Notes: a model not told the origin generated them from the letters alone. DNA of 58,737 nucleotides, filler included, from Malassezia furfur (GCA_052055015.1; 3 parts of 3 records of this genome joined end to end with filler, not necessarily neighbours in it), one strand, 5' to 3'. Shown: positions 1-58,737, counted from the first letter of the whole stretch. Made by a program: numbers and translations.

Positions 1-965
1 GGTTTGGGGCGGGTGTTACGGGCTGGGGGGCGGCGCCTGGTCGGCTCTGCCGACGATGCTTGGGCCGCCTCGTTTCCCTGGCCCAGGTCGATCAAGTCAG
101 TCGCCGGTGCCTCAGTCGCTGATGCCTGCGTATCGGCGGGTGTATCTGCCTCGCGACCCGGTTTAGGCCGCACGGGAGGAGGCGGCTTTTTAACGGACGC
201 ACCCTCAACACGCTCGGTGCGCGCAGGAAGCAAGGGTTTCGCTGTCTCGCTCATATCTTGGGGTATAGGCCGGCTCTCCTCCGACTTGTCCTGTGGTGCC
301 GCACTCGCACTACTCGCACTTTCCGTCTTTTTGCTGGATATTGCACCATGGTCTCGTTCGACGTCACCGGCCTCCGCCTCTGCTGCCTTTGTCGTAGGGG
401 CCGTTTCAGAGGGCGGCGAGCTGAGGGGCGCACTCATCTCGCTTGATGGCCGAGAAAGGACCGGTTTGGGTTTCAACGCAGGTTTTGATTTCAGGTCGGG
501 CTTAGGTTTCAAGTCTGGCTTGGGTTTGAGTTGCGGTTTCGGTTTGGTATCGTGTGGGAGTGGATCGGTAGCCTCGGGGCTCTTGGCTGTGTCTGCTGCT
601 TCCGGCGACAGAAGGTCAGCTGCAGGTTCCCCAGCCCTCCCCAGCTCCTGGGTCTTCAAAGATGTCACCTTCTCCTCCTCAGAGTCGTGGTTGACGGGGC
701 TTGGTACGTCTTTCGCGGGAATTGCCTCTGCTGTTTCACCTTGATTGCGCCGTTCCGGAGCGGCCGTAGGCGGCTTGGTCCACTTTTTGCCCGCTCCAAT
801 CGTCTCACTTGCATTCCCAGAAGAGGAGCTTTTCACACTTCCTTGCCCTCTCGAAGTGCCCCCCTCAAACATAGCACGCAGATCGCGCACGTTCGCTGGT
901 CTCTGCGACCCAGCCTCCGACGGGTCGGTCATGGCGGTGGAGAACCGTGCGCGGTCGTATGACAT
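1..965 (-). CDS. 5' part of a large protein with a disordered Pro/Lys-rich N-terminus (possibly an inositol polyphosphate 5-phosphatase or actin-associated protein); runs off the window
   Basis: Open frame from ATG 965 (MSYDRARFSTAMTDPSEAGSQRPANVRDLRAMFEGG...) to the window edge; KPKPxL repeats and PPPVRPKP; no catalytic domain visible. Confidence 0.6.
   Translation of the reverse strand, partial: MSYDRARFSTAMTDPSEAGSQRPANVRDLRAMFEGGTSRGQGSVKSSSSGNASETIGAGKKWTKPPTAAPERRNQGETAEAIPAKDVPSPVNHDSEEEKVTSLKTQELGRAGEPAADLLSPEAADTAKSPEATDPLPHDTKPKPQLKPKPDLKPKPDLKSKPALKPKPVLSRPSSEMSAPLSSPPSETAPTTKAAEAEAGDVERDHGAISSKKTESASSASAAPQDKSEESRPIPQDMSETAKPLLPARTERVEGASVKKPPPPVRPKPGREADTPADTQASATEAPATDLIDLGQGNEAAQASSAEPTRRRPPARNTRPK
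462..545 (-). repeat. Imperfect 18-bp coding repeat (KPKPQL/KPKPDL)
   Basis: About 5 copies of a 6-aa unit in the minus-strand ORF. Confidence 0.6.
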
Positions 966-1006
966 AAGCAAGTACTTGGCTCGCGCGCTCGCGGGGGAAA
1001 TACAGC

Positions 1007-2118
1007 ATGCCTTATCCCACCTTCTACTCAGAGTGCTTTCCGTACGTGCTTGGCTAACTGAAGTCCACAGCCGGAATGGTCTGCGAACAATATGCCCAGC
1101 CAAACGGGGCGTGTAAGTCGCTGGACTCACCCAGATCGCTCTCGTTACGGGTGGCAATTCGGGGATCGGCTTGGAGACGGTGCGCGCGCTGCTCAGAAAG
1201 GGTGCAAAAGTCTACATCGCCGCACGCAATGAGGCCAAGGCACGCAACGAGATGACCAAGCTGCTGCATGATAACACAACCCATAAAGGCGCAGTGGATT
1301 TCCTGCACTTGGATCTCGCAAGTTTCAGGAGCATCGAGCAGTTTGTACGCGAGCTGCAACGCCAGGAGCAGCGGATCGATCTACTTTTTAACAATGCAGG
1401 CCTTGTCATGCCTGACAACCAAAAAATGAAGACTGCAGAAGGCTACGAAATCCATATGGGCGTGAATGCTTTGGGCGTATATTACCTGACCATGCTTTTG
1501 GTGCCCATGCTAAAGAGGTCATATCAGCACAACCCAGAGCGTCCGCCTCGCGTTTGCTTTACCAGCAGCCTTGCACACCGCGCCGCGCCCAGTTGCGGAT
1601 TCGATCCTGATGATCCGAGTGGTGCCAACATACGCTTTCGTATGATTCCGGCCTACATGCAGGCATATGCGAACAGCAAGATGGCCAACATTCTTGGTAA
1701 GTTTTTGTTTTCTAGACTAATACCAGTGGCGCGAAAGCTCCAACGCAGGTATGGAAAAGATGGAATTATCTTGTATGTGCTATCCTTATGCAGCCATGCG
1801 TGCAACCCAGGGAATCTCAAAACGGGTATTAACAGACACGCGGGATCCTTGTCGACGATGCTACTGGCCAATGTGATTGAGCCCTGCCTCCTCTACTCTT
1901 CTGAACTTGGAGCCTTGACGCAGCTGTATGCCAATACCGCTCCCGAAACAGGCGAGGAGGGAGGACAGTATTACGTGCCGTGGGCACGTAAAGGCGCGAC
2001 TGCTCCTGCAGCGGATAGTCTAGAGGCACAAGATAAGGGTACGTTGCGCACTGACACAGCCGCGGCATATTTCGATGCACAAATTGCCAAGCACGCACAG
2101 ACGTATACAGATGCATAG
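1007..2118 (+). CDS. Short-chain dehydrogenase/reductase (retinol dehydrogenase/WWOX-like), copy 1; introns 1042-1063, 1113-1134, 1697-1726, 1773-1793, 2039-2059
   Basis: After splicing: MPYPTFYSECFPPQPEWSANNMPSQTGRIALVTGGNSGIG, NNAG, YANSK. Confidence 0.9.
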
Positions 2119-2182
2119 GTCCCTTTCTCCACATCAGTTGAGTGATAATTCCCGTGTAGCCCCACATCATCACTCCTGAGGC

Positions 2183-2189
2183 TATATAA
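2183..2189 (+). promoter_or_regulatory. TATA-like element upstream of SDR copy 2
   Basis: TATATAA just upstream of ATG 2199; a similar TATAAA lies at 3748-3753 upstream of copy 3. Confidence 0.3.
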
Positions 2190-2198
2190 CGAATCAGC

Positions 2199-3217
2199 AT
2201 GGTGTTGAGTGCAGTATTTCCGTGCGTCTCTTATGCTAAGCCAGTCCAGCGCCAAAGTGGAACCCGGAAACGGATATGCCGGACCAAACGGGTCGCGTAG
2301 GTCGAGTTACTCATACAGGTTGCTATCGTTACCGGTGGAAACGCGGGGATTGGGTTTGAAACTGTGCGCTGGCTGCTGAAGAAAAATGCCAAGGTGTACA
2401 TGGCATCCAGAAGCCAAAAGCGTGCTGAAGAATCTATTGCCAAGCTTAAGGAGGAGAAACTCCCCGGGACTGTCGAATTTATTCAGTTGGACTTGGCGGA
2501 TCTGAACAATATTAAGACGTTCCCTTCGCGTTTCCAGGCGAAAGAGGACCACATCGACATGCTTTTTAACAACGGCGGGGTGATGCTTCCTCAATCGGGC
2601 CCGAAAACTGCAGATGGCTACGAACTTCAGCTGGGAACCAACGCCTTGGGCCATCACTACCTTACCCAGCTCTTGATTCCCATGCTGGAAGCAGCGCAGA
2701 AGGCGAGCCCCGATCGTCCTCCTCGCGTATGTTTTACTTCAAGCATTGCACACCGGTTTGCTTCTCCGAGTGGATTTAACCCGGAGGATCCGACGGGTGT
2801 CAACACAAAGAGGCCGTTTTACATTCCGCAGGTCAACCGCGAGTATGGAACAAGCAAGTTAGCCAACATCCTGTCTGCCAACAAATTCCAGCGCGAGTAT
2901 GGCTCAAAGGGCATTGTTTTTACATCTGTTCATCCGGGTGCCTTGCGTACGGAGCTCATGCGTGACTGGGGCTCGCCCATTCGTCATATTTTGGGCTGGA
3001 TACTTTTGTACCCTCAAACGATGGGATGCCTCACGCAGCTGTATGCTGTGACTGCTCCTGAAACAAGCTCAAAGGGTGGCAGCTACTTTGTTCCTTGGGG
3101 ACGCGAAGTCGAGCCGTTGCCTATCGCGCTCGATCCGAAAAACCAAGATACATGTACGTGGATTAATCTAACAAAGTCGATGAATGGGTTTCAGAGCAAA
3201 TCAAGAAGCACACATAA
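2199..3217 (+). CDS. Short-chain dehydrogenase/reductase, copy 2; introns 2222-2244, 2297-2318, 3154-3176
   Basis: MVLSAVFPPAPKWNPETDMPDQTGRVAIVTGGNAGIG, NNGG, YGTSK; ends FDEWVSEQIKKHT*. Confidence 0.9.
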
Positions 3218-3803: not shown

Positions 3804-4824
3804 ATGGTGTTGAGTGCAATCTTCCCGTACGTATAGCTACTTACATGGCAGTCCGCGTCCGAAATGGAACCCTGAAAAGGACATGCCGGATCAGACGGAT
3901 CGTGTACGTGGTCCAACTAACCTAGGTCGCCATTGTGACGGGTGGTAATGCGGGTGTTGGCCTTGAGACTGTTCGCTGGCTACTGAAGAAGAATGCGAGG
4001 GTGTATATGGCTTCGCGCAGTCAGCAACGCGCCGAGGAAGCCATCGCCAAGCTGGAGAAGGAGAACCTGCCCGGCAAGGTTACATTTATCCAACTGGACC
4101 TGGCGAATTTGAACAACATCAAGGGTTTCCCCTCGCGATTCCAGCAGCATGAGGACCATCTTGATCTTCTTTTCAACAATGCAGGTCTAGTATCCTTCAA
4201 ACCCGACCAAGTGACCGCGGATGGCTATGAGCTTCAAATTGGAACCAATGGACTTGGGCCCCACTACCTGACCCGGCTGCTCATCCCCTTCTTGGAGGCT
4301 GCCCAGAAACGGACCCCTGATCGTCCGCCACGCGTATGCTTTACGTCGAGTTTGGCCCATCGGTTTGCCTCTCCGGATGGCTTTACGCCTAAGGACCCCA
4401 CCGGCGAGAACACCAACAGGCCTTTCTACGTCTCTGTGGTTAACCGGCGGTACGGAACGAGCAAGCTCGTCAACATTCTCTCGGCCAACAAGTTCCAGCG
4501 TGAGTTTGGCTCGAAGGGCATCGTATTCTCGTCCGTGCACCCTGGTGCTCTGCGCACAGACATTATGCAGGATTGGAAGTCGCCCATGCACAAGTTCCTG
4601 CGCTGTGCGATTTTCTATCCGCAGTCGATGGGTCCCCTGACGCAGCTGTACGCTGCCACAGCTCCTGAGACGGCCACTAAGGGCGGCAGTTACTTTGCAC
4701 CGTGGGGTCGTGAGGTAAAGCCACTGCCAATTGTGCTGGACACGAAGAACCAGGATGTCTGTACGTGGCTACCACTGACGCAGTCGATGAATGGGTTAAG
4801 GAGCAGGTCGCGAAGCACACTTAG
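3804..4824 (+). CDS. Short-chain dehydrogenase/reductase, copy 3; introns 3827-3851, 3904-3925, 4761-4783
   Basis: MVLSAIFPPRPKWNPEKDMPDQTDRVAIVTGGNAGVG, NNAG, YGTSK; close paralog of copy 2 with the same intron positions. Confidence 0.9.
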
Positions 4825-8097: not shown

Positions 8098-10216
8098 ATG
8101 CGTGGGGTCGGCGTACACTGGGTGCGCGCGATGCTGTGCGCGCGTCCGGCGCGCCCGGCGCTCGTGCGCTGGGCGCCCGGCGCTGTGACGATGCGCCGCG
8201 CGCTGTCCACCGACAATGCGGAGTCCTTCTCCCACGCTCATTTTGACAAGGACGCCCACAACGACGAGCAGCTGCCGGTCAAGGAGCACGCCGTGATCTC
8301 GACGTTCGACCTGTTCTCCATCGGCATTGGGCCTTCGTCGTCGCACACGGTCGGCCCGATGCGCGCGGGCGCCATTTTTGTGAACGACCTGCGCGAGATG
8401 GGGCTGCTTGATAAGGTGCACACGCTCAAAGTCGCGCTGTATGGGAGTCTCGCGGCGACGGGCAAGGGACACATGACGCCGCAGGCGCTCCTGCTCGGCT
8501 TCGAGGGCGCCGACTGCGAGACGGTCGACACCGAGAGCGTGCCAGTGCGCTATCAGGCTATTGTCGACGATCAGGTGTTGACACTCGGCAAAGATACCAA
8601 CGACACCTACCAGGACGCCAAAGAGATTCGGTTCAACTTTGACAAGGACCTCGAGTGGAAGTGGGGGCAGACACTCCCGATGCACTCGAACGGTATGCGC
8701 TTCAGTGTGTTTGACGTGAACGGCGACCTGCTCGGCACCAACGACTTTTACAGCATCGGCGGTGGGTTTGTGGTGAATGGCAAAATGGCGGTCGCCGACG
8801 AGCCGGGCCCGCGACCGATGCGCACCGACGACGCGACTACGGAGGATGCCTCAGAGCCCTCGGCGACCGCGCTGGATGCGCCCAAGCCGACCGAGGTGGT
8901 GCCGTCCGGGTCGGATAAGCACCCCGAGGATATGCTCGAGAATGTCTTCTACAAGTCACTGCGCCGCAACGACGCCGGCGGCGAGCGCCGCAGCGGTGTC
9001 AACATGTATGCCAGTGAGAAGGATCTGATGCCGAACATGATCCCCATCGCAGGCGGCACCCAGGCGGAGCCCGATGCGCCGTCGCAGGGCAGCAATGACC
9101 CGCGCTTCCCCTTCCACAACATGGCGAGCCTGCTGGCACTTACGCGCAAGCACAATCTGACCATTGCACAGATTGTGTATGAAAACGAGCTGACCTGGTA
9201 CACCCCGGAGGAGATCGACGAAAAGCTCATGCGCATCTGGAGCGTCATGGACGAGGGCATCCGTGCAGGAGTGCACAGCACGCAGGAGGTGCTGCCTGGC
9301 TCGCTGCGCATGAAGCGCCGCGCGCCCAAGCTGTATGCGCGGCTCATGCGCGGCCTGTACATGGGTCCGCGCCGCCTCGGGCACATGTCCGGCGATGGCG
9401 GCGACGCGATCGACCGGCCGAAGGGCGCGGGCGAAGTCGAGCGTCTGCCGAAGCCTGAGCGTGATGCATCCAATGTGCCCGCGCGCTACACGCGGCGTGA
9501 AATGCCCCGCACGCCCAAGATCCGCGGCTCGTTCCAGCACGAGGTGGTACCGGTGCCGCCGCGGCGCCCCAACTTCCCCGCCATGGACTGGCTGTCGTGC
9601 TGGGCGATCGCGACGAACGAGCAAGTGGCGTCGGGTGGGCGCATTGTGATTGCGCCCACCCTCGGTGCGGCAGGGATCATTCCGTCCGTGTTGCGCTATG
9701 TGGTGGAGTTTGTCGCCCTGTCGCCCGAGGACGAGGAGAACCTCGTGCGCACCTTTTTGCTGACGGCCGCGGCGATCGGTATGCTATTCAAGCGTGGCGC
9801 GACGATTAGCGCCGCCGAGGGCGGGTGCATGGCCGAGGTCGGCACGAGCTGCTCTATGGCGGCCGCGGCGTTTGCGGCGTGCATGGGCGCGAGCCCCGAG
9901 GTGATTGAGCAGGCCGCCGAGACGGCGATCGAGCACAACCTCGGTCTCACGTGCGACCCGGTGGACGGCCTCGTGCAGGCGCCGTGCATTGAGCGCAACG
10001 CCGTCGGCGCCGTCAAGGCGGTCGTCAGTGCGAATTTGGCGCTCTCGACGGGGGGTGACCACTCGATTTCGCTCGACGAGGCGATCCACGCAGCGCGTCT
10101 TACGGCCGCTGACATGCACATGAAATACAAGGAGACGAGGTACGCATCCACATTGACGCAGCCTGAGCGGCCTGGCCACCACGGTCAAGATCCCCGTCGC
10201 GGTGCCAGAGTGTTAG
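8098..10216 (+). CDS. Iron-sulfur-dependent L-serine dehydratase (SdaA-type, fused beta+alpha) with a predicted mitochondrial presequence; intron 10140-10161
   Basis: FDLFSIGIGPSSSHTVGPMRAG, SAAEGGCMAEVG, EHNLGLTCDPVDGLVQAPCIERN; splicing restores the C-terminus KYKETSLSGLATTVKIPVAVPEC*. Confidence 0.92.
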
Positions 10217-10255
10217 TATGTAGGTGTGTATCACGTAAGCATCGCTCTGCGGACC

Positions 10256-12040: not shown

Positions 12041-13056
12041 CTACTTCGGGTCCCATTCGTCCACCGCGTTGTAGAACGTCTGGATCGTGCGCTTCTGTGC
12101 ATCCTCGCCCGACTCCTGCGGCGCGTCGCCGATCGCACGCACCACGAGGTACTTGCGCCCGGTGAGGACCGCAGGCGTCACCGCGGGGGGCCATGCGCCC
12201 TTGGCGGCCTCGGCCGCATGCGCCTTGGAGCCGACCACTGCGCATCCGCTGCGTAAGTAGACACACGTACGCTTCTTGGGCAATCACCATGCCGGCGCAC
12301 ACGTCCCAGGCCCAGCACCCGATCTCCCAGTACACGTCGAGGCACCCAGCCGCGACGTGCGCAAAGTTGAGCGCCGCAGAGCCGACGGAGCGCACGCCGA
12401 GCGCCATCTCGCCGCCCTGCACACCGCCAGCGGCGTCACCGGTGAGACGCTCAAACGTGCGCGTCTTGCGCTCCATCACCTCCTTGGAGCGGTCCGAGCC
12501 CCACTCGAACGCAACGAGCGCCTGCTTGAACGACGACAGCGGCTGCGGCTTGGTGAGCGGCAGCGACCGGCGCTCAGGGTGCAGCGGGCTCGTCATGAAC
12601 GCGCCGCTCCCCTTGCGCGCCGCATATAGCTGACCAAGGAACGGCGCAAAGATCACGCCGAGCACCGGCTCCGACTTGTACACCAGCCCGATGGAAATGC
12701 ACACAAACGGGAAGCCCTTGACGAAGTTGGTCGTCCCGTCGATCGGGTCGATGATCCACGTCGGCGCATCGGTGATCTCGTTCTGCTCGCCGGCCGCCCA
12801 GCTCTCCTCGCCGATGAACTCGTGGTCAGGGAAGCGCGCCTTGATCGCCTCGTGCACGAGCTTCTCCGTGTTCTGGTCCGTCTCGGTCACGAGGTCCGCC
12901 GTGTTCTTCTTCTCGTCGAAGCCAGCTGCGGTCAGAGCAGCACAACGTACTCGCGTTGCGGAAGCGCGTCTCGCTGCCTTCCGTGATCGCCTGGCCCGCG
13001 CGGTGCGCGAGCGCAATTGCAAAGTCCAGCACTTCGTCCAAGTCCAGGGCGCTCAT
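12041..13056 (-). CDS. Inositol monophosphatase; introns 12926-12950 and 12249-12270
   Basis: ADLVTETD, FIGEES, WIIDPIDGTTNF, GSAALN, WAWDVCAG. Confidence 0.92.
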
Positions 13057-13114
13057 GGTGTCCGTTCGCATCCCCGCGCACGGGGCGCCACGTGCTGTGG
13101 AGGCGTCCGCGAGC

Positions 13115-14513
13115 ATGGCCGGATGGGCGCCGCTGCGTGCTGCCGAGTCGTTCCTAGCCGACGCGCCGCACACGCCGGCGCGCGACCGGCCGCTGGCTCC
13201 GCTGTCGCAGCTGCCTGTGCCCGAGTCGATGTCGCAGCGCGCGTCGCAGGCGTCGCCGTACAACTGCCGCGCGCCGACACCGCTGTCGTCGCTGCCCATG
13301 GTACCGGGCGTCGGCTCCGACGAGGAGGAGGTAAGCGACGCCGATACGTGGGGCGACGTCGTCGATGATGTGTACGAGGAGGAAATTGCGCCCATTACAC
13401 GCGCGCGCCTGCGCTTGCGCTCCGGCCTTCCGGCGCTCGACGCATACGCAGGGACCTTGCGCACCGCCGGCGCCTTTGCGACGCACGGTGCCTACGAGCC
13501 CGAGACCGATGACGATGCACTTGGCTTCCCGCTCGGCTCGGCGCTCGAAATCGTGGGGCCTCCAGGCGTCGGCAAGACAACATGGGTGCTCGAGATGGCC
13601 GTGCGCGAACGTCTCGCGCATGTTCTGCACTCGCTCGACCTGGCGCTTGACGAGGTCAGTGCGTCGCCCGCATCCTCGTCGTGCGACACAGATGAATGGC
13701 TTGATGAGAACGTCGCGCCATGGTGTGCACAGGTAGTCCTGGCCGACACAGAGGGGAGCATTGCGTATGCGCGCCTCGCGCAGCTCGCAACGGCCGCGGC
13801 GCGGGACGCCATGGACGCGCCGAGCTGTATACGCTGGCGCACAGCGCTGTCGAGCGCATACACCGTCCAGCATGCGAGTCTTGTGCGGTGCATCCTCCAA
13901 GGGCTCCACGTCGTGCGCCTCACATCGCTAGGCGACCTGCTTGCCTTTCTTGGCGTCGCAGCCGACAGTGTACTCAAAGTGCCCGGCCTACCGCCACGCA
14001 CGTCGCTACTGGTTGTTGACTCGCTGTCTTTCTTGCTAAATACCCACGCTCTCGCGCCAGAGGCGACGCGCGAGCAGCGCCGCGCACGGTCCAATGCGCT
14101 GGCGCTGGCGATCCATGCGCTGACGACACTGCGCGATTTTCACATTCCCGAGCACGATCGGCTCACGGTCATCGTCACTAACCAGATGGCATCACGTATG
14201 CCGGGCGACCGGCGGGCGCAGGCGGGCGTCGAGTCCGTCCTGGTTCCGTCGCTAACGGCCGCACCAACGATGCGCGGCGCATTCGATGCATCCGCGTACG
14301 ACTGGGGGCCGAGTATTCTCGGGCGTAGCGCATGGCGCTTCCTTCTCTTCTATCCCGGCGCGCAAGAGGCGCGGTACGTTGGGCTACTGACCTAGCTTCC
14401 TGGCCATCCAGTCTCGGCCTGATACCCCGAACGCGACCGCCGATGACCATGGCGCTGCGCCGCATCCCTGTATCCCGTTTGTTGTGCAGCCTGCGGCATG
14501 GCACGGTGCATAA
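13115..14513 (+). CDS. Divergent RecA-fold Rad51 paralog (Rad55/RAD51C-like); intron 14374-14395
   Basis: LEIVGPPGVGKT (Walker A), LADTEG, LLVVDSLS (Walker B), VIVTNQM. Confidence 0.7.
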
Positions 14514-39203: not shown

Positions 39204-39303
39204 NNNNNNNNNNNNNNNNNNNNNNNNNNNNNNNNNNNNNNNNNNNNTTAATTAATTAANNNNNNNNNNNNNNNNNNNNNNNNNNNNNNNNNNNNNNNNN
39301 NNN
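39204..39303. other. Assembly gap with artificial six-frame stop linker
   Basis: N44-TTAATTAATTAA-N44. Confidence 0.97.
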
Positions 39304-42813: not shown

Positions 42814-44545
42814 CTACGAGGCGACGTCGGGCCATTGTGGGCGGGGCAGCCACTCGCCGCGGTCATTGTACCGGGGATTGAGCGCAAAGTGCACGCCGTA
42901 CGTGCGATCCGAGCGCCGGAGAGGCAGGACCCATGTCCAGGGTGGGCCGATGCTCAGCTCCATGTTGAGCAGCGGGCTCGTGGACCACCACGTGCGCGCT
43001 GTCGCGGGCACGACGTGCGCCACCGACTCACTCGGCTCGAGCCCCAGCGTCTTTTCGAGGTTCGCTGCACGCTGGTAGGCCTGCGGAGAATCGGCCGCGT
43101 ACGCGAGCTCGGCGCGGCCGCCGATCCACCAGGGGTTGCCTTTGGTCGAAAACGCGCCCCAGTGCTCGTTCCACTTGCGTAGCAGTTCGCGCCGTGCGCG
43201 CAGGCGGCGCCAGACACCGAGCGGCCCGCGGCCGAGTGTGGTGCCTTCGCCATTGTCCGAGTAGTAACGGCGAATAAGCGCACCCTCGATGCTGCGTTCC
43301 GTGTTGATGGCGCGCTGTTCGACGGAAGTGAGGTTGTGCATGCTGAGCTGCACGTGGATCACCAACAGGCTGCACGTAAACAGGAAGAAGAAGAAGCAAA
43401 GGGCGAGCACGCTGATGAGCCACCCGTCGACGTCCCAGTCGTGAATGGAACGCGCCCAGCCGCCCGGCGACTGTGACCGCACGCCGCGCGCAAAAAGCAC
43501 GGCAATGCTCACGAGGCAGAATATGGTAAACACCACGGCCCAAAATACCGTGTTGATGTAGAAGCGGTAGTTTTGCGCACCGATGCACCGGCCGACCCAC
43601 GGGCAGTGGTGGTCCATACGCAGCACGCACTTCCCGCACCGGCGGCAGTGGTGCGCGCGTGGCGGACGTGGCCGCTGGCACCGCTGGCAGTACAGCTCCG
43701 CGGGGTCGAACAGCGGTGGGTTTTGCGGCATACGCCGCGGCTCGCCCATCTTGGGCGGCGACGTGTGCGGGATCTCGCTGTCGTGTGCAGAGCGCTGGTC
43801 CACGCTGGACGTGTCGACCGGCGAGCCCGTAAACGGCTTCGCGGGCGCCACGGCCTCTTCGCCCTCAGTGTCGTGTGGATGCCGCCCGGGGTGCGGAAAG
43901 TGGGGCAGCAGTGCGCCAAAGTCAGCCGCGGGCATCACCGACACGTTCTGGTCGGGCGTCGGTGGGCGTGAGCGCGCCATGGCATGCTCAAACGAGCTGC
44001 TCAGCGTGCTGGGCCGCGCGCGCTCGTCGAGCGGCGTAAAGGGCTGCGTGTTGCGGACGCTGCTCACCTCTTCCTCGGCGCTGAGCGCGCGCGGCGGGAG
44101 CTGGATCGCGAGCGGCGATGCGGGGCGCGGTGCAGGCGCACTAGGCACGTCGACGTGCACGTTGGGCGCCTCGCGCTCTGGCACCAGGTCGGCGACGTAC
44201 CCCGGTGAGACCGTAATCACGCGGACATAGCTCCACGTTGCTGGGTCAGGCATGCGACGACGTACCCATCCCCCACAGCACCAAAAACAGCACAAGCAGC
44301 ACGATGCCTTGTGCGCGGCTCCCCAGCGCGCTCGGGCGCTCGGCGAGCATGGGGTAGCAGATGCGCCAGAGGTACATGGCGCACGTCCACACAATCGAGA
44401 ACAGGATGATCGCGACGTTGCCATACTTGAAGAAGAGCGGCTCTGGACGCGGCGGCGCCTGGGCCCATGGATCCATGGGCTGCACGCGCTCGGAGGCGCC
44501 GATGCCCGCGCGCCGCAAGCACGCGCGCCACGGTGCAGCCTGCAT
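42814..44545 (-). CDS. DHHC palmitoyltransferase; intron 44241-44265
   Basis: [37 protein letters not shown] and four TM helices. Confidence 0.9.
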
Positions 44546-44609: not shown

Positions 44610-46228
44610 ATGTCGCACGGACGCCGCTTGGTCTCGCTGCTCGGCTCCGTGCTGATTGCGCTGTCGGCGGGGAGTACGTATGCGTTTAGCACGTATGCGC
44701 CGCAGCTCCAGGATGTACTGCACCTCACCAGCACGCAGCTCAACGTGCTTGGTCTCGCGGGCAACCTGGGCATGTACATTTCGGGGCCTATCTGGGGCCA
44801 CTGGATCGACCGCATGGGGCCACGGGGGTACGTCGCCACGACTAACGCAGCGCCGTCTCGTCCGGTGCCCTGCTCGTGCTTATTGGCTACGGCATGCTCT
44901 CGCGCGCGTACAAGAACGAGTGGGACGAGGTGCCCGTCGCGCTCCTCGCCGTGTTTATGCTGATGACCGGCTTGGGCAACTCGGCGGGGAACAACTCGGC
45001 GATCAACGTGCAGGCCAAGTCGTGGGGCGGCAGCCGCCGCGGCACCGCGATGGCCACCGTGCTGTCGGCGTTCGGCCTAAGCGCCATGGTGTACTCGACG
45101 ATCTCACACGTCTTCTTTGCCGGGAACACCACCGGCTACCTCGACATGCTCGCGTTCGGCAGCTGCGCAAGCTTCCTCGTGGGTCTTGCGATGCTCAAGA
45201 TCATGCCCCCCGACGAGATGGAGGAGGGCGACGAGGAAGGGCCCGCGCAGCGGGGGCGTTATCAACGCGTCGCCGACGCCGGCGCCCACGGCGAAGAAAC
45301 GTCGCGCCCGCGTCCCCGCCGTCCCCGCTCGTCGTCCGAGGTGAATGCGCGCGTGTACGCATGGCTCGACGACATGAACGAGCAGGAGGCGAACGAGGCG
45401 GACGCCGACGACCCGTTGGACGAGCCGTCGGCGCACGAGCACAACGTCACCGGCCTGCAGCTGCTCTTTGAGCCCGACTTTTTGCTGCTGTTTGCGATTG
45501 TCGGGCTCGTGTCAGGCGCGGGGCTGCTGCTCATCAACAACGTCGGCACCATCACGCGCGCGCTGTGGGACTACAACGTGCACGACGAGGACAGCGCCGC
45601 GCTGCACATCGCCAAGCACCAGAGCGAAAAGCTCGAGATCCAGCGCATCCAGTCGCTCCAGGTGTCGTGCATCAGCCTTGGCAACGCGAGCGGGCGCTTT
45701 CTGATCGGCCTGGTGTCCGACTACCTCGTCGAGCACGCCAAGGACCCGACCTTCCGCACGCTGCTCCTCCTCCCGGTCACGCTCATGGCCGTTGTGTCGC
45801 AGGGCCTCGCGGCGTGGCCCGACACCATCACCAACGTCCACCGCCTCCTGCTCGTCTCGTCGACCACCGGCCTGATGTACGGCACGCTCTTTGGACTCGG
45901 GCCCGTGCTCGTGTTCGAGTGGTTCGGCATCCGCTCCTTCTCGCTGAACTGGGGCTTCATGAGCCTGAGCCCGGTGCTGGGCGGCAACGTGTACAACCTG
46001 CTGTTTGGCGTCGTGTACGACTCGAACGTGCCCGCAGGAAAGCACATGCACCGCTGCCTCAAGGGCGAGGACTGCTACCGCACCGTGTTTGTCTGGACGA
46101 CGGTGGGGTGCGCCGTCGCTGTGCTCGTGTCGCTCGTGCTCATTGTGCGCCGCGTGCGCGGCGTCGCGGCGCGCCTCGACGCGTGGCGCATGGCGCTCTG
46201 GCCGCGGAACCGCATCACGATGGAATAG
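44610..46228 (+). CDS. MFS transporter (Mch1/nodulin-like); intron 44828-44850; start could be 44568
   Basis: [43 protein letters not shown]; about 12 TM. Confidence 0.85.
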
Positions 46229-50154: not shown

Positions 50155-52226
50155 CTATAGGTCGTCGGGGTCGAAGGTGAGCGGCCCCACACGCGCGCCT
50201 TTGGCCTTTTTCTTCGGCTTGGCTGCATCGGGCTTGCGCTTGAGTGGCACCGGCGCGGGCACCTCGTCGTCCTCCGAGTCAGACGCAAACACCGCTTTGA
50301 ACAGGTCCAACGACGGTCGCTCCTCGGTCAGCGCCGCCTCCTGCGCCTTCTCCGCCGCCTCGCTGGGCGGCGCAAACACAAATGCGGGTGCCGGCGACGG
50401 CTCGCGCGCCGCAGCTGGAGCGGGTGTGTCTGCGCCAAACTTGTGCAAGATGTGCTCCATCTCGTTTTCGCTTTGCTCGGGATGCGGCGGGTCGACGCCG
50501 AGGCGCTTGCACAGCAGCCGCGGCGGATTCCAGCGGCGCACGGTGCGTGTGCGGTCGCCAAACGCGCCCTCACGCGCGGCCTGCTGTGCGGGCGTGCGTG
50601 GTGTGGCATCCTCGAGCGGAGCCTCGGTTTTGGGCTGCGCCGCCTCGCGGGGGAGAAAGCCGCCTTGGGCAGGTGTATCGGCTTGCAGGATGCTGCTGGA
50701 CGTGAAGCGGTTGGCCATGGCGCCCTGTACCGGACGGTAGCGCTGTGCTGTCTCGTAAAACTCATCCAGCTCTTCCTGGACATGCTCGATCCCGTCGGGC
50801 GGCGTATAGCTGCGATGCGCAATGGAGGCTTCCAGATACGCCTTGTACCGCGCCTGTTTCGCAGCGTCGGTGCCGACCGGCACAAACGCCTCGAGCGCAC
50901 GCACCGCCGTGTCGGGCTCGAGAGCGTGTACGGTCAAGGGGCGTGCGTATGCCTCCTCGGCCTGCGCCGCCTGGCTCTGTACGCGCTTGGCGGCCTGCTC
51001 GCTCAGGTACGCGGTAATGACCGGCGGCGGCCCTGGCAGTTTCGCCTCGCCCAGCAGCCTGCCACGGTGCGCCGCATCGCGCGGCTTCTCCGGCGCCGGA
51101 CCCGGCTCGGATTTAGCCCACACACGGCGTGGATCGGGCGCCCAATCCGTCGGTACGCTCGGCGGATCAAACCTGGGTTAGCGTTGCACGTACCAAGTTG
51201 GATTCGTCTCCACCGTATCGTCGCCCTTGACAAAGCCCTTGATGAGCGGCCGCCCGTCGTGCCAGGTCTCGTCAGAGGTGAGTGCGGACGTCCCTTCTGG
51301 CTTGGTCTTCTCCCCAAGCCGCAGCGTGTCGTGCCGCGACGCCAGCGTCGAGTCACGAATATCTTGCGGCGCGCTGTACACATGGTCCTCGTCGTCCGAA
51401 TCCATGCCCGACATGCCGATCGCACGCTGGGCTTTTTCGCCATGAAAGCGCTGCAATGCGTCCTGTAGGGCGGAGCTGCTCGTGGCCGAGCCAAGGCCCC
51501 GCTTATCGCGGTTGTCTGCCACCTGCACCAGCTGGGTATCCGGCGGAGGAAATTTGTGCCGCGCCGCTTCGCTGTGCTCGGGCGCCGACGCACGGGGAGG
51601 TGCGAGATGCAGCGACTGTAGCAGTGTGTAGAGATGCTCGCGTTGTGCGTAGGACACCAGTGGGCCGATGCCTTGGCCGGGTTTCCAGCCCATGCGGCGC
51701 AGCAGGTTTTGGCCCATCTGCGAGGAGCTGGCCTGGACCGTGTCGGTTGCGCTGCGGTCGACCATCTCAGCAAAGGGGTCCTGCGTGTCCGCGTATCCGT
51801 ACGCGTCCGTGGTGCTCAGCTTCGACTCGCGCTGCAACTCGGCGAGGTCCTCTGCGTCCATAAAGTCCTCGGGGCGCTGCTCCGACGCCGTCGCCCGCGC
51901 CTTGCGCGACGACCGGAACGACGATGGTGTCCATCCCTCTTTGGACCCGACGGTGTTAAAGTAACCGGCAGAGAAGCCGCCCGTAAATGCGCCGTGGAAG
52001 CGCCGCCGTCCGCGCTCGTCGTAGGCCTGGCGTTAGTGTGCGACGCACCTCTTGCTCCCAGAGCGGTTTCAGCTCATTTTTGTCCTTGCGCGAGTCATTG
52101 GCGGCAGGCAACGGTGTGCCAAACTGGGTCAGACAGGTAGCGCACCTTGACGAAGCTTTCGCCGAAATTGACGTGCGTCGGCACGCCATCGCGCTCCAAC
52201 TTGCGCCTGAGGCGCGACGTTGCCAT
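50155..52226 (-). CDS. G-patch domain protein GPATCH1 (DUF1604); introns 52124-52145, 52027-52048, 51173-51193
   Basis: GRRRFHGAFTGGFSAGYFNTVGSKEGWTPSSF, MGQNLLRRMGWKPGQGIG, WNPPRLLCKR, RPSLDLFKAVF. Confidence 0.88.
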
Positions 52227-52283: not shown

Positions 52284-53361
52284 ATGACGCTCTTCCTGAT
52301 CGGCCTGGGCCTCGCCGATGAGAACGACATCACGCTCAAGGGCCTGCGGGCCGTGCAGTCGTGCGACAAGGTGTATCTCGAGTCGTACACGAGCATCCTG
52401 CTGGTAGGCGATTTTAAGAAGCGCATGGAGGCGCTCTATGGCAAGGAAGTGACACTCGCGCACCGCGAGACGGTCGAGCTCGAAGCCGACGACATTCTTC
52501 TTCACGCACACAAGGGCAACGTCGCGTTCCTGGTCGTCGGCGACCCGCTGTCGGCTACGACGCACTCGGACCTGATTCTGCGGGCGCGCTCGTTCCAGGC
52601 GCCGGGTGCAGAGGCGCCCACGCCCGTCGACGTGCGCATCATCCACAACGCGAGCATTACGACCGCGCTGGGCTCGAGCGGGCTTGCGGGCTACAACTTT
52701 GGGCAGACGATCAGTGTGCCGTTCTGGACGGAAGACTGGCGCCCGGACTCGTGGCTTGAGCGCATCGGTGAAAACATGAACATTGGGCTGCACACGCTGT
52801 GCCTGAGCGACATCAAAGTGCGCGAGCAGAGCATCGAGGATATGAGCCGGTACGTTTGTGCACATGTGTGCTGACCCCAGCGGAATCGTACGATACCAGC
52901 CGCCGCGGTACATGCTCATTCCTCAGCTGATCCGGCAGCTCCTGGCGGCCGCGAAGGAGCACAAGGTCGACTACCTCGACCCCGACCGCACGCTCGCTAT
53001 TGCTCTCTGCCGCATGGGCGCCGAGCCGGACGGCGAGCGGCGCGGCGAACTGATCGTGGCAGGCACCCTTGGAGAGCTTCTGTCCTACACCGAGCCGACC
53101 GACGAGCAGCGCAAGGAGGACGAAGCAGATGACGAGGCATACGAAGAGGAGAACCCGACTGCGAGTGAGAAGGAGATGGACGAGCGCCGCGAGGCGCGCG
53201 CGGTCCGCCGCGCCATTGCGTTCTGGGGCGAGCCGCTGCATACCCTGATTCTGGTCGGCTCCCGACTGCACCCCATGGAGGTCGCCTACGGCAGCTCCCT
53301 GACGCAGCCGGGCAGCCGGTGGGCCGAGGTCGCGGAGAAGGTGTACCACTGCCATGCATAG
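52284..53361 (+). CDS. DPH5: Diphthine methyl ester synthase; intron 52850-52880
   Basis: LIGLGLADENDITLKGL, YLESYTS, VVGDP, HNASI, YNFGQTIS, HTLCLSDIKVREQS. Confidence 0.94.
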
Positions 53362-54231: not shown

Positions 54232-54263
54232 GACGGATCACGTGGAGGGAGTGCAGGGGCCAT

Positions 54264-56146
54264 CTACGGCTGGCTAAGCAAAACGTCGCGCACACGCTGG
54301 TGGTTGGTGCGGAGCCTGGGTGAGTTGTGCATACGTACTTGAGGTTCTCCATCTCCAGCTCGCGGATACGCGTGTCGCGCTCGGCGATCTGCGCCTTGAG
54401 CTCCTCGATCTCTGCCGAGCTTGTTGAGTCCGGTGCGGCGGCGGTTGCGGCGGGGGCCGCCGGCGTGTCGTGCGAGGCCGGCTTGGCCTCGACGGCGTCA
54501 GCGGCGCGTGCGATGCTCTTTTCCTTGGCCTCGGCACGTGGCTCTGATGGCGACGGGTCGACCGACTTGGCTGGCGCCGTGGGCTCCGCAGCCTTGGGCA
54601 CCGCCTTGGGTTCCGCGGCAGGCTCCGCGGTAGGCACTGCGGCAGGCACTGCGGCAGGCTCGGTGGCAGGCACTGCAGTAGGCACTGCCTTGGGCTCCGC
54701 CTTGGGCTCTGCGGTCTGGGGCTCGGTCTTGGGCTCCACGGCCTTGGGTTCCACGGCCTTGGGCTCGGCCTTGGGCTCGGCCTTGGGCTCCGCAGCCACT
54801 GCCGCGGCCTTGGGAGCGGCCTCCCCAGCACCACCGGCCAGCGTGGGCGTCGCCGACTCGCTCGGCACGATCGATCGGTCCGCAAAGTCGAGCAGGTTCG
54901 GCGTGGCGGTCTTCTTCTGCACGAAGAATTCGTCGGCGCTCAGAGCCGGCTTGTCCGACGGCGCCAGCGGGAAAATATCCGCCTGGAACGTGTCGGCCTT
55001 GCGCGGCACGTAGAACGACACCGGCTGGATGAGGCTGTTGGTAACCTTGTACATGCGCGCGATCTCGTTGTCGTCCACGGACAGCGAACGGCGCGGCAGG
55101 AAGGCCATGCCACTCTGCGGCTCGACCGACTTGTACTCGGTAAGGTAGTGCAGTTCGTCGGACTCGAGCTCAAAGTAGCGAATGTTACCGTCGCCCTTGC
55201 CCGCCAGGAAGACGATGTTGTTGTCGCTCCAGAACGGCATCAGGATGCCGTTGCTGCTGTCTAGCGACACGGTCGTGATCGGCTTGGTGGGCTGAGTCAC
55301 GTCCCACAAGAAGACCTGGCGCTCCGACAGCTTACTGAAGCCCGAGGTGATCAGGCGCGGCTTGTCGCCGCACCACACGGCACGCGCGCCCTTGATTCCG
55401 CCGTGGCTGTCCACCGTGTGCACCGCTTTGGGCGTGCGCGTGTCAAACAGACGCAGTTTGCGGTCGCGGCACGTCGCGGCGATCGCACTGCCGGTCCAGT
55501 CGAACGTCATAGACTGGATCGCATCGCCGAAGCCGTCGAGCACGATCTGCGACTTCTGCTTCTCGACATCAAACAGCTTGATTGCATGGTCGCCCGTGGC
55601 TGCAGCAAGCACGTTGGCCGCCGTGGGGTGGAATTGCACATGGCCCACCCGACGCCGGCCGCCGGCAAAGGTCGCGACGGGCTTGATGTCCTCGGCGGTC
55701 GCCTCCTTGCTGTCGAGCCGCTCGACAATTTCGTCGGGCGACACCTTCCACACTGCGACCTGCGCATCGTCGCCGCCGCTCGCGATCACGTTGTCGTCAA
55801 ACGGACTGAACGAGGTGTTGAGCACCGCCGCGGTGTGCCCTCGGCACACAGGATACACATCCGGCAGCTTGCCGGGGCGCGATAGGGGAATCAGCGCAAA
55901 TGCGCCACCGCCGGATGCCTGCCAGTTCATCGCGAGGAACTGGCCATTGGCTTCGAGCAGGTTGGTGTCCCATGCCTGGGGTAAGTGTGCGCACGCACGT
56001 TGTTCGACACCTGCGTCAGTGGAGCAACGTACCTTGACATTGTCGTAGCAAACCTCCTTCTTGGCGGGGTTGCCATACACGTGGCTGCATCAGCCACGCC
56101 GCGCTACGTACCGATACTTGGACGACCGCACGAACCGCCTGCTCAT
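54264..56146 (-). CDS. CRN1: Coronin; introns 56085-56111, 56011-56032, 55976-55998, 54316-54338
   Basis: MSRRFVRSSKYRHVYG, WD40 repeats, GKGDGNIRYFE, VPRKADTFQADIFP, C-terminal coiled coil. Confidence 0.95.
54583..54812 (-). repeat. 12-15 bp coding minisatellite (AEPK/AVPT) in the coronin linker
   Basis: AEPKAEPKAEPKAVEPKAVEPKTEPQ...AVPTAVPA. Confidence 0.8.
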
Positions 56147-56528: not shown

Positions 56529-56702
56529 TTACTTGGCGCGCGCAGCGTTGTTCGAGAGGTTGTCCACCTGGCGCATCGTCGACACGGCGAGAATCTAGGT
56601 AAGGATCCGAACCGGGAAACATACATGGTAGACCACAATCAGGATCATGGCGCCGCTGCCGAGCATGTTCGAGATCGTCGTGAGCGCAGTGTCGGTGATC
56701 AT
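56529..56702 (-). CDS. OST4: Oligosaccharyltransferase subunit Ost4 (47 aa); intron 56595-56624
   Basis: MITDTALTTISNMLGSGAMILIVVYHILAV. Confidence 0.9.
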
Positions 56703-56858
56703 CGTAGCAAGAGATAGACAGGGCTAGTCGAGGGGCGCTAGTGACGTGCAGGCCGTCCAAATAAAAATTTTGCCGCGAGCCAAATCACGCAAGCGGTGCT
56801 TTGTCATGACGTCATACCTCCTAGGAAATCTACGAGCACGCAGGACAAGGCGCCTGTA

Positions 56859-57674
56859 CTACTCCTTTCGCCGCTTGCCGGTGGTCGACACCTTTTTGCG
56901 TGCGCCGGCGCCCGACTTGGCGCGCGCGCGATTCGCAGAACGCCGTATTTCGGCCTGTTGGTGGTTGCGCTCGCGCTGCCGATGCCGCTCTTCGGCACGC
57001 TCCGCGGCTGAGAGGTAGTGGTGCTCGCGCTTTGCCGGCGCCGGCGCGGCGGTCTCCGTAGCAATTATAGGCATAGCATTCGCGACCTCGGGCTCGAGAA
57101 TCGACGTGAGGCTCCCAGATGGGCGTGTGTAGGACGGCTTCTTTGGCTTGGCCGGCTCTGCGCGCGCCTCTTTCCGCGCGGCGCGGCGCGACGACGGCGG
57201 GAGTTCTTCGCGTGGCGCCGGTTTGGGCGCAGGCGCGGCCCAGTCGTCCACATCAAATTCCTGGACGGTGACGTGCGCGCGACGCTCGTCATTTTCAAAG
57301 TCGTGCTCCTCCTGCATGCGGACCTCCTCGTCGTCCGCCTCCTCGTCCGACAAGAGACCCAGCGCGCGACGCTCCGCGCGCACGTTCTCGGCGGCCTGCT
57401 CCTTGCGCGCCAGTGCAGCATCGCGCCGGCTCTGCCGGATCTCTTCACGGATTTTGGCCTGCTTGGCGTCGTGTGCATGCTGCCTGCGCTGTTGCTTGCG
57501 TTTCGAGAAGCCGGTGAGGTACTCGCGCCGTGCGTCCTCATCGAACGTGACGGTCTGTCGCTTCTCGAAGCGCCGCTTGGGCGGCGGCGGGCGCAATGGC
57601 GGTGCGCGCTTCTTGAGCACCGGCTTGCTCTTTTGTGCCGACTCGGTCAGCTGTTGCAGCGTGCTACCGGCCAT
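56859..57674 (-). CDS. RRP17: Nucleolar protein Rrp17/NOL12
   Basis: VTFDEDARREYLTGFSKRKQQRR. Confidence 0.85.
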   Translation of the reverse strand: MAGSTLQQLTESAQKSKPVLKKRAPPLRPPPPKRRFEKRQTVTFDEDARREYLTGFSKRKQQRRQHAHDAKQAKIREEIRQSRRDAALARKEQAAENVRAERRALGLLSDEEADDEEVRMQEEHDFENDERRAHVTVQEFDVDDWAAPAPKPAPREELPPSSRRAARKEARAEPAKPKKPSYTRPSGSLTSILEPEVANAMPIIATETAAPAPAKREHHYLSAAERAEERHRQRERNHQQAEIRRSANRARAKSGAGARKKVSTTGKRRKE

Positions 57675-57766
57675 GATGAAGCGTGCCTGCAAGCTGCGCG
57701 CAGGCACGCCCGATCACCCACCGCAAAAAAAGGCCCGATCGCGCCCAGACGCCGCCCCCCACCCTG

Positions 57767-58737
57767 ATGCGCGCGACGCCGACACAGGCGAAGCCGCGCG
57801 CGCCCGCGGTCTCGGGCCTGGGCCGCGGCGCCGTAGGCCAGGCACAGATCGCGGACAAGAGCGGGCGCATCACCGAGTACTGGTCGGAGGACGACAAGTG
57901 CCCTATCTGCAAGACGGACCGCTACCTGTCCCCTCGGCTGCGGTTGATGGTCAGTCCGTGCTACCACAAGATGTGTGAGTCGTGCATCGACCGGCTCTTT
58001 TCGCTGGGCCCTGCGGCATGCCCCGTGTGTGGCAAGATCGTGCGCAAGCAGCAGTTTAGTGCGCAAACGTTCCAGGACCTCGGCGTTGAGGAGGAGGTGG
58101 CCATCCGCCGGCGCGTCGCCAAGCTGTTCAACCGGCGCCCCGAAGACTTTCCGAGCCTCAAGGCCTACAACGACTATTTGGAAGAGTTTGAGGAGATCAC
58201 GTTCAACCTCGTCAACAAAGTCGACGTGGAGCATACGCAGCAGCGGCTCGCGCAATACGAGGCGCGCAATAAGGCCATCATCGCCGCACACCAGCAGCAG
58301 CGCGAGCACGAGTCCGAGCAGCAGCTGCAGGCCGACGAGGAGGCGCGGCATGAGCGCCAGGTGCGTGCGCAGCGCGTGCTTGCGGAGCAGAAGCTCGAGC
58401 AGGAGCAACGCGAGGAGGACGAGCGTGAGATGGTCGCGGCGCTCGCGAATGGACGCAGCATCGACGAGGTGATGCGCGACCGAGCCAAGCGACTCGAGGC
58501 GCGTGCACGCGATGCGCAGAAACGCGAGCGCGCCGAGCAGCAGCGCCTGCAAGAGTACGAGCGTGAGCGACAGGCGCGGCGGAATGCGGCGCCGAAGCCG
58601 CGGCAGACGGCCGCCGAGGCCGAGGTGGTGCGCGAGGCGACGCGCTCCGACTACGTAGGCGCCTTTGCGACGATCGACGACGGCGCGGCGCTGGCGCCCG
58701 TTCGTGCGGCACCCGCGTCGCTCGGCGGGCGGGGCGG
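57767..58737 (+). CDS. TFB3: TFIIH/CAK assembly factor Tfb3/MAT1 (runs off the window)
   Basis: CPICKTDRYLSPRLRLMVSPCYHKMCESCIDRLFSLGPAACPVC, YNDYLEEFEE. Confidence 0.93.
   Translation, partial: MRATPTQAKPRAPAVSGLGRGAVGQAQIADKSGRITEYWSEDDKCPICKTDRYLSPRLRLMVSPCYHKMCESCIDRLFSLGPAACPVCGKIVRKQQFSAQTFQDLGVEEEVAIRRRVAKLFNRRPEDFPSLKAYNDYLEEFEEITFNLVNKVDVEHTQQRLAQYEARNKAIIAAHQQQREHESEQQLQADEEARHERQVRAQRVLAEQKLEQEQREEDEREMVAALANGRSIDEVMRDRAKRLEARARDAQKRERAEQQRLQEYERERQARRNAAPKPRQTAAEAEVVREATRSDYVGAFATIDDGAALAPVRAAPASLGGRG

Follow-up and report, generated by a model that had tools for sequence, protein, structure and literature searches.

Very short predicted spliceosomal introns in Malassezia furfur and their apparent lower limit of 21 nucleotides

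The stretch of Malassezia furfur DNA considered here (GCA_052055015.1; 58,737 nucleotides (nt), filler included; hereafter, the window) carries 66 predicted GT-AG introns in 29 gene models, 42 of which are only 21-23 nt long. The window consists of three contigs (C186, C188 and C189) joined end to end, from an assembly that totals 13,683,795 bases and 1856 contigs. The joins are artificial spacers (19563-19662 and 39204-39303), each composed of 44 N, TTAATTAATTAA and a further 44 N, and because the contigs, which are of falling length, were joined artificially, gene order across the joins carries no meaning. Every window contig has a colinear second copy with 86-89% identity (L005-L007 and L030-L033), and the U6 gene is present in two copies with different flanks, from which we infer that this genome is hybrid-like, resembling that of an interspecies-type hybrid; the available part of a published account speaks of doubled M. 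furfur genomes (PMC4634964).

Gene models were scripted with a length penalty favoring shorter introns and a minimum intron length of 10 nt, and were then curated by hand. The introns retained were 21 nt (9 introns), 22 nt (24), 23 nt (9), 24 nt (2), 25 nt (7), 26 nt (2), 27 nt (2), 28 nt (3), 30 nt (2), 31 nt (1), 34 nt (1), 35 nt (1), 37 nt (1) and 133 nt (2) long, with a mode of 22 nt, a median of 22.5 nt and 64 of the 66 no longer than 37 nt. This recount reproduced the values of an earlier note on this DNA, which had given about 66 introns, about 42 of 21-23 nt, a mode of 22 nt and all but two of 37 nt or less. Predicted introns discarded before the count lay at 3008-3038, 3827-3836, 4594-4645, 4648-4661, 10216-10239, 13827-13844, 17607-17574, 29056-29042, 33146-33129, 37638-37752, 48979-48921, 47978-47879, 54293-54270 and 57721-57642; the grounds were a homeologue without GT/AG or with coding-like identity, a frame open without splicing, or a position antisense to a gene. 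The first intron of VPS34, modeled as 37 nt, was replaced by one of 23 nt.

The donor was GTACGT in 39 introns, GTATGT in seven, GTGCGT in seven, GTAGGT in four and another sequence in nine, and all 66 had GT-AG ends with G at +5. A branch motif (CTNAY or TTGAC) was present in 65 of the 66, one nucleotide before the YAG in 46 of the 65; the pentamers were CTGAC (17), CTAAC (16), CTCAC (13), CTTAC (7) and others (12), with none in one intron. The introns are GC-rich, with a clear RCTNAC branch site and no polypyrimidine tract. Among introns of 21-23 nt, the branch A occupied position 16, 17 or 18 in 12, 22 and 7 of 41 introns, respectively; its earlier placement at 16-17 therefore holds for 34 of the 41, and fails for the seven at position 18. 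A motif scan of the window for units of donor, branch and acceptor yielded 10 units of 21 nt, 24 of 22 nt and 9 of 23 nt; against these 43 units, 50 dinucleotide shuffles averaged 1.96 and never exceeded 6. Neither the U12-type donor RTATCC nor the U12-type branch site TCCTTAAC occurred in any of the 66 introns. These signals support the assignment of the window introns to the major (U2-type) spliceosomal class, with splicing predicted.

Three intron positions are common to three short-chain dehydrogenase paralogues that lie in tandem. The first gene (1007..2118, +; Pfam adh_short), the frame of which is open once spliced, has introns at 1042-1063 (22 nt), 1113-1134 (22), 1697-1726 (30), 1773-1793 (21) and 2039-2059 (21), the two in the middle being extra, as they are missing from the models of both other paralogues. 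The second (2199..3217, +) has introns at 2222-2244 (23, without a clean branch motif), 2297-2318 (22) and 3154-3176 (23, with an AAG acceptor), and the third (3804..4824, +) at 3827-3851 (25), 3904-3925 (22) and 4761-4783 (23). The second-subgenome copies of this tandem region (1007-4824) align at only ~70%, far below other regions. The L-serine dehydratase gene (8098..10216, +) has one intron, 10140-10161 (22), which is kept in the homeologue; the SDH_alpha model reaches the end of exon 1 at position 254 of 260. Its product is of the Fe-S type, a mainly bacterial family, with SDH alpha and beta domains and an N-terminal extension in a single fungal gene. Further along lie the genes for an inositol monophosphatase (12041..13056, -; introns 12950-12926 (25) and 12270-12249 (22)), a tentatively named RecA/AAA-like protein with weak AAA matches (13055..14513, +; 14374-14395 (22)) and the D-aminoacyl-tRNA deacylase DTD1 (14514..15128, -; 15085-15064 (22), 14838-14813 (26), 14668-14648 (21), 14602-14580 (23) and 14564-14543 (22)). 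Spliced DTD1 is identical to M. furfur GenBank record P0443 at 164 of 166 residues, and its NDGPVT motif is completed by a 15-nt micro-exon (14579-14565) between the 23- and 22-nt introns. Two other micro-exons between tiny introns, at 56010-55999 and 23051-23040, are each of 12 nt. The gene for the branching factor YJU2 (16502..17545, -) is intronless. An unnamed membrane protein without a Pfam match (17581..18172, +) has introns at 17604-17624 (21) and 17855-17876 (22).

Beyond the first join, an unnamed secreted-looking protein (19805..20243, -; intron 19922-19895 (28)) and a YPK1-like protein kinase (20413..22192, -; 22170-22147 (24) and 21770-21749 (22)) precede a gene for an RNA polymerase Rpb11-family subunit (22299..22979, +; 22442-22574 (133), 22602-22629 (28) and 22680-22812 (133)). 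Its two 133-nt introns are the only long ones in the window, are of equal length in the homeologue and probably host C/D small nucleolar RNAs: the second contains, at 22732-22806, a weak snR41-guide-like match before a CUGA box, below the Rfam cut-off (E 4.3). No Rfam match at the cut-off and no tRNA was found in the window. Next are a zinc-binding dehydrogenase/quinone oxidoreductase (22992..24085, -; 23709-23686 (24), 23076-23052 (25) and 23039-23012 (28)), a phosphoglucomutase (24261..25998, -; 25924-25903 (22), 24814-24790 (25) and 24289-24264 (26)), to which the M. restricta gene aligns without introns (339/554 identical), an unnamed Cys/His-rich protein (26327..26922, +; 26384-26406 (23)) and the VPS34 PI3-kinase (27980..30607, -; 30542-30520 (23) and 30165-30144 (22)), the PI3K_C2 match of which covers model positions 4-81 on one exon and 85-136 on the next. 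They are followed by ALG11 (30787..32350, +; 30957-30978 (22), a position empty in L088, L090, L091 and L096), the mitochondrial phosphate carrier (32432..33404, -; 33103-33079 (25)), ETF beta (33687..34632, -; 34568-34534 (35), 34396-34370 (27), 33957-33933 (25) and 33777-33741 (37)) and Frequenin/NCS-1 (37050..37700, -; 37636-37603 (34), 37299-37278 (22) and 37154-37133 (22)). Once spliced, ETF beta matches GenBank M. furfur record P0003 at 273/273 residues and is colinear with the Meira, Ustilago and Rhizopus proteins, and NCS-1 (190 amino acids) is identical to M. furfur record P0274. A 3' gene end cut by the contig end (39064..39202, -) has an intron at 39097-39076 (22) that is absent at six relatives' loci.

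The last contig carries genes for a Ten1-like protein (40763..41225, +; 40852-40873 (22); Pfam Ten1_2 below cut-off), a protein that we take to be REV7/HORMA-like, its single exons having no Pfam match (41255..42357, +; 41316-41336, 41364-41384, 41549-41569 and 41701-41721, all 21 nt, and 41826-41847 and 42072-42093, both 22 nt), a small unnamed protein (42354..42654, -; 42577-42556 (22)), a DHHC palmitoyltransferase (42814..44476, -; 44265-44241 (25)), an MFS transporter, the MFS_1 match of which covers model positions 3-62 on one exon and 68-205 on the next (44610..46228, +; 44828-44850 (23)), a GPATCH1-like G-patch/DUF1604 protein (50155..52226, -; 52145-52124 (22), 52048-52027 (22) and 51193-51173 (21)), a DPH5-like diphthine methyltransferase (52284..53361, +; 52850-52880 (31)), a coronin-like WD40 protein (54264..56146, -; 56111-56085 (27), 56032-56011 (22), 55998-55976 (23) and 54338-54316 (23)) and Ost4 (56529..56702, -; 56624-56595 (30)), the homeologue of which was not among the DNA compared. 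Pfam matches support the names given to dehydrogenases 2 and 3, inositol monophosphatase, the YPK1-like kinase, the Rpb11-family subunit, the zinc-binding dehydrogenase, phosphoglucomutase, ALG11, the phosphate carrier, DHHC, G-patch/DUF1604, the DPH5-like and coronin-like proteins and Ost4.

The length distribution was also determined elsewhere in the genome, in 53 stretches of 10 kilobases (kb) outside the window (530 kb, ~22 kb of which are homeologous overlaps). The number of units per length was 1 at 19 nt, 2 at 20 nt, 33 at 21 nt, 38 at 22 nt, 43 at 23 nt, 25 at 24 nt, 30 at 25 nt, 14 at 26 nt, 5 at 27 nt, 17 at 28 nt, 9 at 29 nt and 2 at 30 nt, with a background of 1.4. With the branch filter off, the step was still visible, 20 nt giving a count of 35 and 21 nt one of 85, with a background of 48. 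Gene models of the 530 kb contained 239 strong introns (103 of 21-23 nt, 159 of 21-25 nt and 213 of up to 30 nt), with a median of 24 nt and two under 21 nt. The genome-wide peak is a plateau at 21-25 nt with a sharp left edge at 21 nt and no single mode; the sharp 22-nt mode described in the earlier note is thus a feature of the window, not of the 530 kb elsewhere.

Downstream of the GTAYGT donors (n = 626), the branch A was found at position 14 in 2 cases, 15 in 4, 16 in 42, 17 in 35 and 18 in 33. The step from position 15 to position 16 was from 2 to 33 for a branch-to-AG spacer of 1 nt, from 0 to 7 for 2 nt, from 0 to 2 for 3 nt and from 0 to 3 for 4 nt, the numbers for the last two spacers being small. 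As the step falls at position 16 for all spacers of 1-4 nt, the limit lies in the lariat loop, from the 5' G to the branch A, rather than in total length, and as the branch A almost never precedes position 16, the minimum is 16 nt for the predicted lariat loop and 21 nt for the intron. Two of the four units with an earlier A were nested inside introns of 21 and 23 nt. This hard floor at branch position 16 speaks for a physical limit of the M. furfur spliceosome.

We consider it very probable that these are old, ordinary introns of the U2 type, brought down by contraction to the smallest size that the major spliceosome of M. furfur can physically handle. In each, a donor of six nucleotides, GTACGT in most cases, is separated by at least four free bases from a degenerate RCTNAC branch site, with the YAG usually 1 nt further on; recognition would take place across the intron. 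Positions +1 to +6 would be bound by U1 and then by the ACAGAGA of U6, and the 5-6 bases preceding the branch A would be bound by the branch-binding protein and then by the GUAGUA of U2; the 3' AG would be the first YAG 4-5 nt past the branch A. With the A at position 16, the donor would take up positions 1-6 and the U2 helix positions ~11-17, with four linking bases and no pyrimidine tract. A standard catalytic core would then be working at its steric limit, and any accommodation would lie in peripheral parts.

The core elements of the two small nuclear RNAs, the inspection of which had been proposed in the earlier note, are canonical: U2 (124.4 bits) has an intact branch-recognition GUAGUA, and U6 (77.8 bits; two copies, at 1501-1605 (-) of L002 and 1295-1399 (-) of L003) has intact ACAGAGA and AGC. 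The idea of a U6 that has co-evolved with the GTACGT donor is unsupported, as the ACAGAGA is unchanged. A remodeled spliceosome, in which the Isy1 N-terminus, the U6 internal stem-loop (ISL), a divergent U1 and perhaps lost factors enable the 16-nt lariat, would refine the explanation by contraction to a physical limit without excluding it, and is a tentative possibility that we judge somewhat less likely to be true than false. The first residues of Isy1 are MPPS in M. yamatoensis as well as in the two subgenome copies, and MAPS in M. psittaci, versus MARN in human and in a fungal spliceosome chain (9l5s), the deviation concerning residues 2-4; a protein atlas confirmed membership of the Isy1 family and provided nothing further. 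The N-terminal segment of Isy1 contacts the branch helix, according to the available part of one study (10.1101/2020.09.22.306647), and the Isy1 N-terminus of Stentor is also described as non-conserved (PMC9505925, in part). The ISL loop of both U6 genes is six bases long, one base more than the five-base loop of 17/17 other eukaryotic U6 stretches (L170-L186), these controls being unnamed eukaryotic contaminants in bacterial genome bins, several of them near-duplicates. In the two genes, U2/U6 helix II is also followed by an added hairpin of 14 nt, ahead of the oligo-U end. No U6 was found in the viral collection.

The Isy1 N-terminus and the U6 loop are nevertheless best treated as leads, set here against human, one fungal chain and the contaminant sequences, and the changes may be unrelated drift. 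Moreover, Yju2, which is encoded in the window, has a conserved N-terminal domain, and the N-terminus of Cwc25 (MGAGDLNMKKSWHP in both subgenome copies) is conserved, unlike that of Stentor Cwc25. As for U1, the Rfam models RF00003 and RF00488 had no match in the assembly, but a miss in a draft genome by a loose first-look search is weak evidence of divergence. The U1 pattern ATACKTACCTGG had 5 matches, which all read as reverse-complement intron donors, versus 4 in the control, and the 14 matches to a U1-70K loop pattern read as intron donors or coding sequence; the best-looking loop pair was rejected as U1, being antisense to a ubiquitin-conjugating gene, presumably RAD6-like. It is similarly doubtful, if conceivable, that the M. 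furfur clade independently evolved a spliceosome with a 16-nt minimum lariat through a divergent U1, the U6 ISL loop of six bases and the MARN-to-MPPS change of Isy1, the last of which would parallel Stentor.

Contraction to a physical limit presupposes that the segments are spliced out at the predicted ends, and they are almost certainly real spliced introns. Retention or the use of more distant donors and acceptors, both named in the earlier note as refuting outcomes, or an assembly or indel artefact, might be proposed, given that the introns are known here from sequence only, that eight introns with lengths that are multiples of three contain no stop and would cost little if retained, and that public read-through proteins exist (P0002, P0124, P0141 and P0545). 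However, 51 of the 66 lengths are not multiples of three and seven of the other 15 introns contain an in-frame stop, so that retention of 58 of the 66 would break conserved proteins. The read-through records have frameshifted or truncated tails or 7-residue insertions relative to solved structures, as expected when genes are called on genomic DNA without splicing; in read-through DTD1, there are two insertions, each of exactly seven residues, with respect to 2okv and 3knf. Protein records in GenBank already imply several of the window introns, and orthologues without some of these introns align uninterrupted across the sites. A read-through NCS-1 from another Malassezia-like genome (P0334) has a 7-residue insertion at the position of the second NCS-1 intron of the window, implying a 21-nt intron there.

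The second subgenome provides a further comparison, for 54 introns (the 11 dehydrogenase introns, with an alignment at paralogue level, and that of Ost4 were excluded). The GT and AG were kept in 54/54, the G at donor +5 was changed in 0/54 and position -6 in 3/54, whereas the intron middles differed at 119 of 372 sites (32%); codon positions 1, 2 and 3 differed at 4.6, 2.2 and 25.6%, respectively. Nine introns differed in length between subgenomes, in every case by a number of nucleotides that was not a multiple of three. A splice-blind test covered 13 junctions in the genes for NCS-1, ETF beta and the REV7-like protein. Every in-frame deletion close to them that removed no more than 90 nt was scored, with no splice rules, against profiles of 62, 91 and 51 homologues, from which named Malassezia and the three closest unnamed REV7 matches were excluded, although other Malassezia members may remain. 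The predicted length was best at 12/13 junctions (ETF beta 4/4, NCS-1 3/3 and REV7-like 5/6), and the predicted sites outscored all other in-frame GT/GC-AG pairs, more distant ones included, at 13/13 (REV7-like 6/6), as far as protein evidence reaches. Splicing at any other ends, or no splicing at all, is thus very improbable.

Relatives of M. furfur indicate where such small introns may have come from. A metagenome scan recovered 80 NCS-1 loci, 17 of which were aligned, and six syntenic Malassezia-like loci were examined further, L088 and L090 being identified as M. sympodialis and M. restricta by exact protein matches; the cross-species lengths rest on 16-20 kb per species. Position and phase were common to at least one relative for 9 of the 15 window introns tested. 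At shared positions, the lengths in the window and in L096 were 34/32, 22/33, 22/29, 35/38, 27/34, 37/36, 23/34 and 22/36 nt (with 32, 33 and 29 nt at the NCS-1 positions and 34 and 36 nt at two VPS34 positions of L096), those in the window and in L103 were 34/42, 35/43, 25/40 and 37/61 nt, those in the window and in M. sympodialis were 34/28, 35/29 and 22/28 nt, and the single pair for M. restricta was 34/27 nt. M. sympodialis also has 22-23 nt units, including one of 22 nt in its VPS34 region, and the NCS-1 introns of more distant fungi are 48-93 nt long and differ in position. L096 and L103/L104, which are syntenic with the window, have more and longer introns (29-38 nt with one of 72 nt, and 38-61 nt, respectively), including NCS-1 introns lost in M. 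furfur. As the shared positions are occupied in relatives by introns that are mostly longer, the small size there results from contraction rather than fresh insertion.

A recent burst of short mobile introns, such as introner-like elements, would also produce a narrow size range, and 6 of the 15 tested introns have no counterpart in the relatives, making gain in the M. furfur lineage possible for those six. The 9 of 15 common positions argue against such a burst, as does the individuality of the introns: the linkers of the 22-nt introns are distinct in 24/24 and no more alike than column shuffles (two pairs with 6/7 matches, versus 0.96 expected, and 24% of shuffles reach two), and end redundancy is 0-1 nt in 53 of 66. 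The introner-like reading is already contradicted for the window and is highly unlikely; the introns appear to be mostly ancestral and shrunk, with no mobile family. The relaxed branch sites CTCAC, CTTAC and CTTAT, presented in the earlier note as a sign of adaptation to minimal substrates, lose that meaning: CTCAC, CTTAC and CTGAC branches and GTACGT/GTGCGT donors are also present in longer-intron relatives (introns of 27-61 nt), so relaxed signals are no mark of minimal size. Ire1/HAC1-type and tRNA-endonuclease-type introns are also ~20-30 nt long, and size alone would favor such non-spliceosomal excision, but GT-AG ends in 66/66, a branch motif in 65/66, signals that stay the same along a continuous range of lengths up to 133 nt, and free middles make it exceedingly improbable.

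Several points weigh against contraction of U2-type introns to a fixed limit. The introns and lariats are predictions from DNA and protein sequences. The intron list was motif-guided and covered coding regions, so introns of untranslated regions or with odd signals may be missed, and the genome scans were likewise motif-guided, with splice matrices trained on 20-30 nt matches from 33 of the 53 sampled stretches, which represent ~4% of the assembly and come from the largest contigs. At the 41826 junction of the REV7-like gene, a 25-nt deletion slightly outscored every 22-nt deletion. Two un-nested units below the floor, of 16 nt (L080, + strand near 9927) and 17 nt (L037, - strand), may be chance matches or real exceptions. 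The six introns without counterpart and the missed U1 also belong on this side of the balance.

Nucleomorphs, which are endosymbiont nuclei, also have ultra-short introns, and human cells need introns of roughly 70 bases. In human, as in M. furfur, the limiting measure is the distance from the 5' splice site to the branch rather than total length; the M. furfur minimum of 16 nt compares with one of ~50 nt in human extracts, with splicing abolished in vitro at 46 nt, according to work on short human introns and Smu1/RED (PMC6692369; this and the following sources were available in part). The loop of 16-18 nt falls, as the earlier note had claimed, in the range of other tiny-intron systems, ciliates and myxozoans being similar (PMC13644364). 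Stentor coeruleus shares with M. furfur U2-type GT-AG introns in which the branch A is the sixth nucleotide from the 3' end, a conserved U6 ACAGAGA, U2 branch-recognition site and Yju2, and a changed Isy1 N-terminus (PMC9505925). It differs in having AT-rich introns of 15-16 nt with the A at 10-11, no branch consensus and a Cwc25 without the glycine plug (PMC9505925), whereas those of M. furfur are 21-30 nt long and GC-rich, with the A at position 16 or later and a clear RCTNAC, and its Cwc25 N-terminus is kept. Of the traits that mark Stentor-type tiny introns, M. furfur has only the Isy1 change. Two myxozoans have intron medians near 22 bp and U2-dependent splicing without a real polypyrimidine tract, as in M. 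furfur, but the myxozoans, dicyemids, other ciliates and microsporidia are reduced parasites or ciliates with weak branch signals (PMC13644364), whereas M. furfur is a basidiomycete that can be cultured, and both its 5' and its branch signals are strong.

Within the genus, the curated M. sympodialis set comprises 5350 introns with a mean of 30 bp, 99% of them supported by RNA sequencing (PMC5389616), M. restricta introns have a median of 30 (PMC9241646), and a review calls Malassezia introns "very short" (PMC7426719). A mean of 37.2 for M. restricta and annotators' minimum intron lengths of 10-20 are given among PMC5389616, PMC9241646, PMC6473144 and PMC7426719, and automatic annotation of M. 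globosa gave means of 76-79 bp (PMC4634964). These congeners have the same splice signals as M. furfur, the introns of which are shorter than those of M. sympodialis and M. restricta (median 22.5 nt in the window and 24 nt in the sample). In the available parts of PMC5389616, PMC9241646, PMC6473144 and PMC7426719, a 21-nt floor, a 16-nt lariat and a 1-nt branch-to-AG spacing are not stated for M. sympodialis or M. restricta, and those of PMC6157073, PMC5654937, PMC3560662, PMC7385547, PMC8476143 and PMC4634964 contain nothing on very short Malassezia introns. A 2026 paper on lineages with introns under 30 bp does not, in its available part, mention Malassezia, the fungi there being Microsporidia only (PMC13644364). 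Short Malassezia introns (mean 30 nt) are thus already in print, and the 21-nt floor and 16-nt lariat appear to be new, no statement of either having been found in the available literature, although length tables by species may exist in supplements.

It is an open question how a very large spliceosome copes with introns that cannot stretch across all of its binding sites, and the known extremes (Stentor, myxozoans, nucleomorphs and microsporidia) are hard to manipulate. Agrobacterium and CRISPR/Cas9 tools exist for M. furfur (10.1101/638429, in part), and a growable, editable species with a sharp floor and readable signals would make the limit testable base by base. What is added here is a lower limit for the lariat loop and, at the same positions in relatives, graded longer introns. 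Gene finders overlook some of these introns. In the M. furfur ISY1 gene (L169, 1492 onward; L167), which has introns of 23 and 22 nt, GenBank record WFD47939.1 is a 69-residue read-through ending inside the first, 23-nt intron, and the M. brasiliensis DTD1 record lacks five residues, including the GP of NDGPVT encoded by the 15-nt micro-exon. Claims of gene loss for Malassezia furfur need rechecking with a minimum intron length of 20 nt. If the clade did evolve its own spliceosome for 16-nt lariats, Malassezia would offer a graded series (~40-60, 30-38, 22-30 and 21-25 nt) along which the changes responsible could be mapped and then tested by gene editing.

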